DNA of 64,000 nt, from positions 776,502 to 840,501 of the forward strand of contig KV454013.1 in NCBI GenBank assembly GCA_001661245.1. Reading direction: 5' to 3'. How positions within the stretch are numbered: the first letter of the stretch is position 1; each line of letters begins with the position of its first letter. The DNA comes from Pachysolen tannophilus NRRL Y-2460. Its lineage: Eukaryota. Shown here piece by piece: positions 3,460-61,669 of this stretch. The notes under the pieces are model-generated. The model was not told the origin of the DNA. It saw nothing but the letters and a program-made list of their open reading frames with translations, and made no database searches. The position numbers and the translations under genes were made by a program.

Positions 3460-4590
3460 ATGGCACAAAAAGTAATATTACATCTTAGAGCTGAAACTAA
3501 ACCTTTAGAGGCAAGAGCTGCGTTGACACCATCGACAACACTGGAATTGTTGAAAACTGGGAATTTTGTTATTTATGTGGAAAAATCGTCACAATCAACT
3601 TTTACTGCAGAAGAATATGAAAGAGCTGGTGCTATAATTGTTCCTGAAGGTTCTTGGAAACATGCTCCTAAGGATAGAATTATTATTGGGTTAAAAGAAT
3701 TACCTGAAAATGAAACTTTCCCCTTAGTACATGAGCATATTCAGTTTGCTCATTGCTATAAGAATCAAGGTGGTTGGCAAGACGTTTTGAAAAGATTTCC
3801 TGCTGGGAATGGTGTACTTTATGATTTGGAATTTTTGGAAAATGATCAAGGAAGAAGAGTTGCAGCTTTTGGATTCTATGCTGGGTTTGCTGGTGCTGCT
3901 TTAGGTATTAAAGATTGGGCTTTTAAACAATCACATTCCAATTCTGAAGATCTCCCATCTGTATCGCCTTATCCAAATGAATACGTTTTGGTTGATGATG
4001 TTAAACAAGACTTTCAAACAGCTCTTTCTAATAATGGTAATAAATATCCTAATGTGTTGATAATTGGTGCCTTGGGTAGATGTGGTTCTGGTGCTATCGA
4101 ATTATTACGTAAAATAGGTGTTCCAGAGAAAAATATAATTAAATGGGATATGGCTGAAACTGCTAAAGGTGGTCCATTTGAAGAAATTGCTCAAAGTGAT
4201 ATTTTCATTAACTGTATTTATTTATCAAAACCAATCCCACCTTTTATCGATTTGAAAACTTTAAACCACTCAAATAGAAAGTTGAGAACTATAGTTGATG
4301 TTTCAGCTGATACTTCTAATCCACATAATCCAATTCCAGTTTATACTATAGCTACAACATTTTCAGAGCCAACAGTACCTGTTGAAACATCAAAAGGTCC
4401 TAAATTGTCAGTTATCTCTATTGATCATTTACCTTCATTGTTACCAAGAGAGGCATCCGAATTTTTTTCAAGAGATTTGTTACCTTATTTGAAACAATTA
4501 CCACAAAGAAACACAGCGCCTGTTTGGACTCGTGCAAGAGTTTTATTTGAAAAACACGTTGCTCGTTTAAATAGAGAATCAAAATTATAG
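3460..4590 (+). CDS. LYS1: Saccharopine dehydrogenase (NAD+, L-lysine forming) with C-terminal PTS1 SKL
   Basis: [53 protein letters not shown]; ends ESKL. ATG at 3460. Confidence 0.97.
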
Positions 4591-4721
4591 AAAAATTTGA
4601 AGAGATTTCTACAGTCTTGTTTGTCTTGTTTTTTCTTTTACGATAATAATGTTAATATTATTATGATTATTATTAATATTATTATAATTATTATTATGTA
4701 GCCTTAATTTAAATACATATT

Positions 4722-5975
4722 TTATTCTAATTCAACAGTAACTTTTGACATTTTATGTTTTTTATTTTTTTTCCTTTGCCTTGAATTCATATTACCATTC
4801 ATGATCTTTTTAATCTCCTCTCCATCTGTCTCGTATTCACTTTCAATACCACCAGCATTTTCACCTTCTTCATTGGCTTCTTCATATCTTCTTTTCATGG
4901 AGTCAAATTTTTCAACATTTTCACTAACAACACAACAACAGTTTAACCTTTCACCAGTATCATATACTGCAACTTGATCTTTTATACTAAGATCCCAAAC
5001 AACAATCTTACCATCAGATGAGATTGAAATTAAGAATTTAGTTGAAGTCTGATGATCTTCATATATTCTAAAATCTTTAACTCTATTTGAATGTCCAACT
5101 AATTTAAAACCTGGTGTTAAAGAATCTAAATCAATTTCTTCATCTTCCAAATTTAATATCGATTTTAAATCGTTAAAAATTATTGATCCATTATTATGAG
5201 CAGTGATTAAATATTCAACATTATCAATAACAGCAATTAAAAGTTTCATTAAAGTTGATTTAAATTTTAAAAATTTAAAAATTTTAGCATTAGTAGTTTG
5301 ATAAATTAAAATTTTATTTAATAAACCAACAACAAATTCATTACCATTTTTTGACCATTCAACAAATTGACCACTTTGTCCCAAAGTATCTTTACCTTTC
5401 ATCTTTAAAGTACTTGCCTTCTTTGCAGTCATCAAATTCCATAATTTAATAGTTTTATCATCACTTACACTAACAGCAACTCTACCTGATGGATGTATAG
5501 CTAAATCATTAACTCTAGCAGTATGACCTTTTAAAGTTCCAAAAATTTCCCAATCTTTTGTTCTCCATATTATGATATTCCCATCATCAGATCCTGATAA
5601 AAGCCATTTCCCAGATTTTTCTAAATTATCTTTATTATCCAATTTACTTGATTGATCTTTTAATGGTGCTTCTGAAGAAAATTCTAATGTTGTAATAGAT
5701 CCTGAATGTGAAAGTAAAGTACCCAATTCTTTTCTTTTTTGTAAATCGTAAATCTTAATATGTTCATCATTACCACCACTTACGAGATACCTTTTTGCCA
5801 GATCCACACACCTTATCGAAAGGGAATGAGCTTGAAAATGGAAAATTGGTTGAAAAATTGGAGTCAAAGATTTATTTAATATCAATGAAAGACATAATAA
5901 ATTATGCTCATAAGAACCAACAATAATTCTAAATTGTATTGGTTTATTAACACTATTCTCCCCAGATTCAGACAT
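4722..5975 (-). CDS. MAK11: WD40 60S ribosome biogenesis factor Mak11/PAK1IP1
   Basis: FRIIVGSYEHNLLCLSL, PIFHFQAHSLSI, IYDLQKRKELGTLL, WD repeats. Lies near CDC16 as in S. cerevisiae. Confidence 0.93.
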   Translation of the reverse strand: MSESGENSVNKPIQFRIIVGSYEHNLLCLSLILNKSLTPIFQPIFHFQAHSLSIRCVDLAKRYLVSGGNDEHIKIYDLQKRKELGTLLSHSGSITTLEFSSEAPLKDQSSKLDNKDNLEKSGKWLLSGSDDGNIIIWRTKDWEIFGTLKGHTARVNDLAIHPSGRVAVSVSDDKTIKLWNLMTAKKASTLKMKGKDTLGQSGQFVEWSKNGNEFVVGLLNKILIYQTTNAKIFKFLKFKSTLMKLLIAVIDNVEYLITAHNNGSIIFNDLKSILNLEDEEIDLDSLTPGFKLVGHSNRVKDFRIYEDHQTSTKFLISISSDGKIVVWDLSIKDQVAVYDTGERLNCCCVVSENVEKFDSMKRRYEEANEEGENAGGIESEYETDGEEIKKIMNGNMNSRQRKKNKKHKMSKVTVELE

Positions 5976-59749: not shown

Positions 59750-59902
59750 GTAGTCAATAGTAATTTACTTGTATATAGTTTCCATATTTAAGTCTACATT
59801 TCTCACTACTTTTTGCGTATACTATGAATTATTCATATATTTAAATATATATATATATATATGATTGAATGAATATATAATTAATCTATCATTAAAGAGA
59901 TC

Positions 59903-61669
59903 ATGACGACTGGAGCAGAGATTATAGCTGAAACGTTACAGCTGTTAGGTGTGAGAATTGTATTTGGGATTGTTGGTATACCAATTGTGGAAATTGCAGA
60001 TGAGTTGATAAAACGCAAGATTAGATTTATTTCATTTAGAAATGAGCAATCTGCTTCTTACGCGGCTTCTGCCTATGGATATTTAACTGGGAAACCAGGT
60101 GTCTTACTAGTTGTTGGAGGTCCTGGTTTAATTCATGCTACTGCCGGAATTTTGAATTCAATTTCTAATAGATGGCCTTTATTAGTATTGGCTGGTTCCA
60201 CAGGTTCTTCGAATTTTGATAAAGGTGGCTTCCAAGAAATGGATCAGGTGAGTTTGTTGAAACCGTATGTTAAATTCTCCACTAGACCTAGATCAATTCA
60301 AGCTTTGCCCCAATTAGTTGAAAAACTGTTGAAGGACTGTTTAGTTGGAGTTCCAGGTGTTACTTATGTGGATTTACCTGGTGATATGATCCAGATGAAG
60401 GTGGATGCCGATGAAGATGTCCACGAAGATGTGTTAGTTCTGTTGAAAGATATTTCATGCTCAGAGGTACTAGAAACAGGTGCTCCAAAGTTCTTGCCAG
60501 AACCATCACTGTTATACAGAGCTTGTAAATTGATTAAATCGGCCAAATTCCCATTAATTGTATTGGGTAAAGGAGCAGCTTATTCCGATTGTCCTGAAAT
60601 TTTAAGATCATTTATCACAAGTCATAATTTAGCATTTTTACCAACACCAATGGGTAAAGGTATAATGTGTGATTACTCTCAGTTAAATGTTTCTTCTTGT
60701 AGATCAGCAGCTTTGAAAAATGCAGACGTTATCATATTGGTTGGTGCAAGATTAAATTGGATCTTACATTTTGGTGAGTCACCAAGATTTAATGAAGATG
60801 TAAAATTTATTCAGCTTGATTTGTCTTCTGAAGATATTGGGAATAATGGTTCCTTAACAAGTTACAAATACGGGTTGGTTGGAGATATTGGATTAACAAT
60901 AGAAGCATTGGATAAATTATTGAAGGGTTATAATGCACCTTCTCTTCCAGGAACATTAAAGGATATCATTAAATCCAATGAATCGAAATTAGCTAAAAGG
61001 GAAGAATATTTTTCAACATCTTCATTATTGAACTATTTCCAGGTTTACAAGATACTTAAAGATATAATAACTCCTATTGAAGACGACATAATATACGTTA
61101 TTGAAGGTGCAAACACTATGGATTATGCTAGACAATGTTTTCCTGCAACAATGCCAAAACAACGTTTAGATGCTGGTACTAATGCCACAATGGGTGTTGG
61201 TCTAGGCTATGCAATAGCTGCAAAGATATCCCATCCAAAAAAATTGGTTCTCGCCATTGAAGGTGATTCGGCCTTTGGCTTCTCACTGATGGAGTTGGAA
61301 ACCATAAGAAGAGCCAATCTTCCAGTATTAATTGTTGTGATGAACAATTCCGGAATCTATCATGGTATAAAACCTGAAAGGTACTTATCCAATGATGATA
61401 ATCAGAATTTACCCTCAACGGCTTTGGGTTATAATGTACGTTATGATTTATTGGCAAAATCTTTTGGTATAACTGGATACTATTGTGATACTTATGGCAA
61501 TATCAAGCAAAGTTTCACCAAGGCAGTCGACAACTACTACAAAAAGGGAGAATCTAGTTTGTTAAATATCATCATTGATCCTGCTGTGGATACAAAGTTG
61601 CAATTTGGATGGCAAAGTGGTGGTACCAAAAAGAAAAAAAGCACCAATACAAGTAGTCCTAAGCTATAG
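59903..61669 (+). CDS. PXP1: ThDP-dependent 2-hydroxyacyl-CoA lyase / oxalyl-CoA decarboxylase family, peroxisomal (ends PKL)
   Basis: VFGIVGIPI, FRNEQSASYAASAYGYLTGKPG, RLDAGTNATMGVGLGYA, ThDP motif GDSAFGFS...NN, PTS1-like PKL. Confidence 0.9.
   Translation: MTTGAEIIAETLQLLGVRIVFGIVGIPIVEIADELIKRKIRFISFRNEQSASYAASAYGYLTGKPGVLLVVGGPGLIHATAGILNSISNRWPLLVLAGSTGSSNFDKGGFQEMDQVSLLKPYVKFSTRPRSIQALPQLVEKLLKDCLVGVPGVTYVDLPGDMIQMKVDADEDVHEDVLVLLKDISCSEVLETGAPKFLPEPSLLYRACKLIKSAKFPLIVLGKGAAYSDCPEILRSFITSHNLAFLPTPMGKGIMCDYSQLNVSSCRSAALKNADVIILVGARLNWILHFGESPRFNEDVKFIQLDLSSEDIGNNGSLTSYKYGLVGDIGLTIEALDKLLKGYNAPSLPGTLKDIIKSNESKLAKREEYFSTSSLLNYFQVYKILKDIITPIEDDIIYVIEGANTMDYARQCFPATMPKQRLDAGTNATMGVGLGYAIAAKISHPKKLVLAIEGDSAFGFSLMELETIRRANLPVLIVVMNNSGIYHGIKPERYLSNDDNQNLPSTALGYNVRYDLLAKSFGITGYYCDTYGNIKQSFTKAVDNYYKKGESSLLNIIIDPAVDTKLQFGWQSGGTKKKKSTNTSSPKL

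Follow-up and report, generated by a model that had tools for sequence, protein, structure and literature searches.

CUG is very probably read as alanine in a 64-kb window of budding-yeast DNA, most likely from Pachysolen tannophilus

Genes of the window and their CTG codons

The 64-kb stretch of DNA analyzed here (hereafter the window) was examined for the meaning of the codon CTG (CUG), which a sequence-only reading of the same DNA had taken to be alanine instead of leucine. As set out below, the public records of the window genes and the distribution of CTG in homologue columns both point to alanine. The window is AT-rich, with a GC content of 24 to 36% across 4-kb bins (approximately 30%), and shows the dense gene packing of budding yeasts, with 28 open reading frames (ORFs) of at least 200 amino acids. 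Pfam matches comprise a Cdc27-type TPR protein, Rad23, USP7/UBP15, NAD kinase, argininosuccinate lyase, asparaginyl-tRNA synthetase (AsnRS), prolyl-tRNA synthetase (ProRS), and a thiamine-diphosphate HACL/oxalyl-CoA decarboxylase-like enzyme. The last is the PXP1 of the sequence-only reading, from which the labels Bfa1, Scw4, and Rad7 were also adopted. Source names of matches supplied the labels UBP15, MNN4, and pantetheine-phosphate adenylyltransferase (CAB4-like), a PDB title supplied UTR4, and ARG4, Lys1, and SFA1 are labels that we assume for window genes. The nearest named orthologues, with 42 to 57% identity, are from Komagataella, Kuraishia, Ogataea, [Candida] arabinofermentans, and Brettanomyces. 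Pachysolen was named among the matches solely for a paralogue of the LicD gene, from Pachysolen tannophilus NRRL Y-2460 at 38% identity. No orthologue bore that name, as would be expected if the public entries encoded by the window are themselves those of Pachysolen.

CTG accounts for 95 of the 14,890 codons in the 28 ORFs, and 24 of these ORFs contain at least one. The other leucine codons occur 798 (TTA), 406 (TTG), 156 (CTT), 58 (CTA), and 30 (CTC) times. Three of the 95 CTG triplets are not codons of real gene models: those at 22337 and 22352 belong to the out-of-frame end that a frameshift gives the lipase gene, and that at 46323 lies inside a duplicated copy adjoining an N gap.

CTG in public protein entries and in homologue columns

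Public protein entries match the window ORFs solely when CTG is translated as alanine, which holds for nine of nine ORFs and 33 of 33 CTG codons. For four ORFs, the entries differ from the standard-code translation at CTG codons only, always from leucine to alanine: at 6/6 codons in UBP15, 7/7 in the CAB4-like ORF, 8/8 in the LicD/MNN4-like ORF, and 4/4 in PXP1 over residues 113 to 588 (entry P0121). Five further ORFs were looked up by exact sequence in NCBI, UniRef, and nr. The translation according to NCBI table 26 was on record for all five, a table-1 (standard-code) translation for none of the four tested, and the table-12 translation was not on record for the one tested. The table-26 translation was found verbatim for the saccharopine dehydrogenase-like ORF (in NCBI, with the table-1 version not on record), the enolase-phosphatase (UTR4-like HAD) ORF (in NCBI/UniRef), and the ProRS ORF (in NCBI). 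Because all 33 CTG codons in the entries for the nine ORFs are alanine, the source genome is already annotated publicly with table 26. With CTG read as alanine, standard-code ORF translations are wrong at every CTG, as the sequence-only reading contended.

The columns of homologues opposite each codon were evaluated by a Codetta-like test on UBP15, PXP1, the CAB4-like ORF, and the LicD-like ORF, which together hold 26 CTG codons, of which 13 to 20 were usable sites. The four alignments covered the ORFs at 26862-29498, 37202-38119, 38483-42460, and 59903-61669 and contained 118 to 146 homologues each after removal of rows with more than 70% identity or covering less than half of the query. Position-based sequence weights were applied, and the log-odds of each amino acid were summed over the columns of each codon. 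A second run was performed with X at the CTG positions, against the bias from writing leucine there. Alanine was the top call for CTG in all 12 settings, which varied the alignment, the occupancy cut-off, and the pseudocount; the scores ranged from −1.6 to +7.9 bits for alanine, from −10.5 to −1.0 for serine, and from −18.1 to −3.6 for leucine. As a control, 57 to 58 of the 59 other codons regained their standard meaning, the misses being the low-count serine codons TCC and AGC.

If the window used the standard code, CTG would be a rare leucine codon of an AT-rich genome, placed at weakly constrained sites. A leucine codon ending in G is indeed expected to be rare at this GC content, but CTG is commoner than CTA and CTC despite the AT bias, and these two equally rare codons were called leucine in the same test. 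None of 5000 resamples of true leucine sites reached the observed alanine-minus-leucine score; the resamples averaged −58 to −67 bits, whereas CTG scored +13 to +16 bits. Leucine-dominant columns were found at 1 of 20 CTG sites as against 130 of 282 sites of the other five leucine codons (Fisher p = 0.0002). Of the 91 columns in which leucine reaches at least 70%, none is at a CTG, and 78 are at one of the remaining five leucine codons. The earlier statement that conserved leucine positions use other codons is therefore correct, and the tabulation over homologue columns rejects leucine firmly and calls alanine.

Serine is another amino acid to which CUG has been moved in budding yeasts, both in Candida/Debaryomycetaceae (table 12) and in the Saccharomycopsis/Ascoidea clade, and it is hard to tell apart from alanine at variable surface sites. 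The residues flanking CTG are also as rich in serine as those flanking true serine codons (0.132 versus 0.135). Nevertheless, alanine was ahead of serine by 8 to 17 bits in every one of the 12 settings, and resampled true serine sites reached the observed alanine-minus-serine score in only 2 of 5000 cases in the X-masked run and in 0 of 5000 in the leucine-aligned run. None of the 27 columns with at least 70% serine holds CTG, and serine is absent from the columns at residue 1181 of UBP15 and residue 295 of the CAB4-like protein. The nearest named orthologues are Pichiaceae and not CUG-Ser taxa, and it is the table-26 version, not the table-12 translation tested, that is on record. A serine reading is thus extremely unlikely. 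The preference for alanine over serine claimed from the sequence alone stands in all settings, with the qualification that its margin rests largely on PXP1, as described below.

Individual CTG sites and their character

The CTG sites for which context or homologues were considered are as follows.

3541..3543, forward strand: in-frame CTG, residue 28 of the saccharopine dehydrogenase-like ORF; start of the span given in the sequence-only reading
14728..14730, reverse strand: in-frame CTG, residue 206 of Rad7 (MAA[CTG]LLDR)
18399..18440, forward strand: eight CTG within 14 codons, residues 121 to 134 of the Rad23 linker; evidence from context
19651..19653, reverse strand: CTG, residue 238 of the enolase-phosphatase (UTR4-like HAD) (RDGN[CTG]ELS); alanine in both solved homologues
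21901..21903, reverse strand: CTG of the patatin-type lipase (ASA[CTG]VPGILNP); GCG, alanine, in the sole homologue, on contig L035
33749..33763, forward strand: three in-frame CTG of the Scw4-like ORF (T[CTG]G[CTG]G[CTG]E), in a low-complexity region
38918..38920, reverse strand: CTG, residue 1181 of UBP15; column Leu 80, Val 24, Phe 5
50645..50647, reverse strand: in-frame CTG in the poly-alanine tract of the Bfa1-like ORF, which reads AAAAAAAAAA[CTG]AAAASAA
56508..56510, forward strand: CTG, residue 129 of ProRS (WFD[CTG]RIKK); alanine in human ProRS
59942..59944, forward strand: CTG, residue 14 of PXP1 (LQ[CTG]LGV); variable column, Arg 20, Ala 18, Gln 11, Asp 11
60326..60328, forward strand: CTG, residue 142 of PXP1/HACL-like enzyme (VEK[CTG]LK); column Ala 107, Gly 5, Ser 4, Cys 4, Leu 4
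60509..60511, forward strand: CTG, residue 203 of PXP1; column Ala 31, Ser 22, Asp 17; alanine in the public entry
61286..61288, forward strand: CTG, residue 462 of PXP1 (GDSAFGFS[CTG]ME); column Ala 53, Gly 43, Leu 15

All nine sites cited in the sequence-only reading are in-frame CTG codons with the flanking residues as quoted, and its assertion that CTG repeatedly sits where the family has alanine is right for a minority of sites. One is residue 142 of PXP1 (columns from 146 kept homologues), where all four solved homologues shown have alanine, as does the public entry P0121. At residue 462, the solved homologues have A, G, G, and G and the public entry has alanine; residue 203 of PXP1, residue 238 of the HAD protein, and the lipase site also agree with the assertion. 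At residue 14 of PXP1, by contrast, the column is mixed and the solved homologues have S, Q, Q, and Q. The solved homologues of the HAD protein are yeast Utr4 and the human E-1 enzyme; its residue 219 is opposite leucine in yeast Utr4 and alanine in the human enzyme, and its residue 83 is aligned with glutamine. The proposed ProRS family motif FDAxIKK is present in human ProRS, for which the five chains shown are one and the same protein, but prokaryotic homologues, 31 in all, generally lack it (K 12, R 8, A 3, E 3, L 0). Variable columns make residues 416 and 431 of the ARG4-like protein (Q/E and C/Q) and residues 236, 252, and 332 of NAD kinase (S, D, and L/K) uninformative, and five to six of the eight CTG codons of the LicD/MNN4-like ORF lie in inserted or poorly occupied segments. 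The site-by-site evidence of the sequence-only reading is selective, and the window by itself supports its case less strongly than it implied.

For the lipase, the only homologue found is on L035, a JGI metagenome contig of 208,897 bp presumably from a related yeast (~40% GC); no relative was found in a first metagenome scan, and this one locus was found in a second. The L035 lipase (bases 122124-123419) shares 233 of 334 residues (70%) with that of the window and reads ASSAVPGILNP at the CTG site. Opposite its own five CTG codons, the window has S, L, S, and V or no aligned residue. Against the PDB, the whole lipase ORF gave no homologue at E ≤ 1e-5, and the matches of its patatin core were insignificant or N-terminal, without reliable coverage of the site.

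Three sites are judged by context. If CTG were leucine, 9 of the 14 residues of the Rad23 linker would be leucine, and if it were alanine, the linker would read SAAPAESAASALSAAE; this argues against leucine and does not separate alanine from serine. Together with the poly-alanine tract of Bfa1 and the Scw4 run, the linker speaks against leucine by context alone, the Bfa1 tract being suggestive only; no homologue evidence was found for the Bfa1 and Scw4 sites. Residue 206 of Rad7 has no homologue coverage, with a solved yeast Rad7 chain aligning only from query residue 222. The highest CTG density in the window is that of a bHLH ORF (31104-31928, reverse strand), in which 14 of 274 codons are CTG; all of these fall within the low-complexity N-terminal half and none in the HLH domain (residues 157-205).

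Several observations weigh against an alanine reading. The agreement with public entries reflects the annotation of the genome and is no independent evidence of translation in the cell. ARAGORN found no tRNA gene in the 64-kb window, so that no tRNA(CAG) comes from it, and no Rfam family matched it at the gathering threshold. The miscalled codons TCC and AGC show that the column test is noisy at n of ~7 to 15. Without PXP1, no amino acid had a positive score for CTG, and serine (−4.1 bits) stood slightly above alanine. Of the 20 CTG columns that could be aligned, alanine leads in three, leucine in four, serine in two, and another residue in 11. In the 12 closest homologues, CTG sites have 16% leucine, 14% alanine, and 13% serine, whereas the same homologues have 52% leucine at true leucine sites, 38% alanine at true alanine sites, and 34% serine at true serine sites. 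Because these shares match none of the three ordinary classes, the CTG sites appear to resemble none of them. The flanks of CTG are serine-rich and lack the alanine-richness seen around GCN codons. They are also less hydrophobic than the flanks of other leucine codons (0.28 versus 0.34, p = 0.0005), so that flanking-residue composition sets CTG apart from leucine codons but not alanine from serine. Residue 1181 of UBP15 is a counter-example at a hydrophobic column, although the public entry (P0001) still has alanine there. Finally, the mean leucine frequency in CTG columns is approximately three times that in GCN columns (0.11-0.135 versus 0.036-0.039; p = 0.0001 for 0.11 versus 0.036). Taken by itself, the comparative signal of the window is fragile, and its preference for alanine over serine rests largely on PXP1.

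The serine reading described above would gain from the score without PXP1 and from the two serine columns. The standard code would gain from the four leucine columns, the excess of leucine over GCN columns, and the leucine/valine column at residue 1181 of UBP15, but it would also turn a Rad23 linker with eight CTG in 14 codons into poly-leucine, and none of the four standard-code translations tested is on record. With conserved leucine columns avoided as described above, the probability that CTG is an ordinary leucine codon here is very small.

CTG sites are weakly conserved, with a mean top-residue frequency of 0.35 compared with 0.44 to 0.56 in the other classes, and 9 of the 26 (35%) are in gappy or inserted columns, compared with 11% for leucine, 5% for alanine, and 16% for serine codons. 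Mistranslated CTG codons in CUG-Ser species were ruled out as the source of the leucine signal; NCBI-annotated CUG-Ser1 species also carry leucine, at residues 596 and 1181 of UBP15, and the signal at CTG columns is therefore real. A search for mistranslated alanine CTG codons in the closest relatives (P0002, P0123, P0392, and P0280) gave no excess of leucine opposite the GCN alanine sites of the window, with counts too small for this comparison. The gappy placement and the leucine signal suggest young codons at unconstrained sites. In this small sample, most present CTG codons probably arose by single-base changes from TTG/CTN leucine codons and other neighbors at alanine-tolerant sites.

The same two features could be taken as a sign of ambiguous decoding resembling that of Ascoidea asiatica, with mainly alanine and a minor leucine or serine share. 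Such decoding would leave a leucine-like signal at CTG sites and would be tolerated in the poorly constrained or inserted segments that CTG favors. However, in the proteome of P. tannophilus as presented in part of PMC4937558, 97.2% of 907 fully supported CUG positions are alanine and the rest are classed as rare incidences, and the origin of CTG from TTG/CTN leucine codons at tolerant sites, which we infer, is a simpler source of the signal. Ambiguous decoding of this kind is very unlikely. More broadly, a minor leucine (or serine) share of CUG may persist and would explain the gappy or inserted placement together with the approximately threefold leucine signal; in a milder version, CUG as alanine would be a young, fast-turnover class drawn mostly from TTG/CTN leucine codons at tolerant sites. 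We regard this proposal as highly improbable. A passage of the Pachysolen report places CUG "mainly at conserved alanine positions" (PMC4937558). In the window, 3 of 20 columns are alanine-dominated and most are variable, a difference from that remark in emphasis and not in the code.

Three class II aminoacyl-tRNA synthetase genes, one of them encoding ProRS, lie side by side within 5.5 kb (54246-59749):

54246-55904, reverse strand: AsnRS gene (Pfam)
56124-57866, forward strand: ProRS gene (Pfam)
58211-59749, forward strand: second D/K/N-type synthetase gene, with a likely mitochondrial presequence

The remaining observations concern assembly and gene models. The window contains N runs at 6347-6826 and 46063-46220. 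Immediately right of the second, 46221-46800 is an exact 580-bp copy of 45167-45746, approximately 1 kb leftward, and gives rise to an extra ORF (45985-46677) with the same N-terminus as that encoded by the NAD kinase gene (43542-45623). This repeat looks like a scaffolding or gap artifact rather than a true tandem duplication. An A9T6 homopolymer run (22382-22396) breaks the lipase gene (20866-23348, reverse strand) into two overlapping frames. Because the L035 homologue reads straight through this break point (…KRKFFRIVLKNYGKSALCLSGGA…), the window lipase carries a one-base indel, which may be an error of sequencing or a true frameshift. A class III alcohol dehydrogenase-like gene appears to begin, over approximately 24402-24890, with a short first exon (MSTVGK, ATG at 24402) and an intron. 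The ATG-started ORF at 24891-25661 seems to be only the C-terminal two-thirds of this protein, with an upstream in-frame stretch continuing the frame.

Decoding of CUG and its known parallels

Taken together, these data make it very probable that the window comes from the nuclear genome of a CUG-Ala-clade budding yeast, most likely P. tannophilus, with CUG translated as alanine as in NCBI table 26. This conclusion is based on the annotation of alanine at every CTG checked, the avoidance of leucine columns, and the best column fit of alanine; from these we infer the tRNA and the translation product. The reassignment is real and already known, with no feature departing from the known system, and the sequence-only reading was correct in stating that this code is established for Pachysolen (table 26), for which it was published in 2016.

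By the mechanism published for P. tannophilus, the ancestral tRNA-Leu(CAG) would have been lost and CUG then captured by an anticodon-mutated tRNA-Ala(CAG). This tRNA would keep the alanine identity set G3:U70 and A73, and it would be charged with alanine because alanyl-tRNA synthetase does not read the anticodon. According to the parts of PMC4937558 that deal with the tRNA and its origin, the Pachysolen tRNA(CAG) has G3:U70 and A73, and loss of tRNA-Leu(CAG) followed by codon capture best explains the reassignment.

The window resembles Pachysolen in CTG density: PMC4937558, in its genome-wide counts, gives 16,824 CUG codons in 5288 genes, with at least one in 80% of genes, compared with 95 in 28 ORFs and 24 of 28 ORFs affected here. 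As in table 26, CTG was the sole codon to depart from the standard code in the column test, apart from the two low-count serine miscalls. The phylogenetic section of PMC5951914 describes an Ala clade of Pachysolen, Nakazawaea, and Peterozyma that splits, inside the family Pichiaceae, from a Leu2 clade including Komagataella, Kuraishia, Ogataea, and Pichia, and the nearest named orthologues of the window genes, from Komagataella, Kuraishia, and Ogataea (45 to 57% identity), are in this Leu2 clade. Table 12 (Candida albicans and relatives, CUG as serine) is similar in that CUG is the lone sense codon reassigned and conserved leucine positions are avoided. It differs from the window in the 8 to 17 bits poorer fit of serine, in the strongly serine columns without CTG, in the missing table-12 record, and in the capturing tRNA, which there is a tRNA-Ser and not a tRNA-Ala, as stated in part of PMC5951914. 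In A. asiatica, CUG has likewise moved off leucine in a budding yeast, but the portion of PMC6041473 consulted here describes two competing tRNAs and a mixed proteome with stochastic serine and leucine, in contrast to the near-uniform alanine given for Pachysolen in PMC4937558.

The relevance of this result lies in annotation, not in discovery. Under the standard code, 24 of the 28 ORFs would be mistranslated, at approximately 95 residues in all, with leucine written for alanine. The affected residues include catalytic-domain positions, such as residues 142 and 462 of PXP1, and the error creates long artificial leucine runs in the linkers of Rad23 and the bHLH protein. Table 26 is therefore advised for homology searches, structure prediction, and heterologous expression of these genes. 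The underlying biology, the reassignment of a sense codon through tRNA loss and subsequent capture by a tRNA-Ala, has been in print since 2016, and the public records of these genes already apply it.

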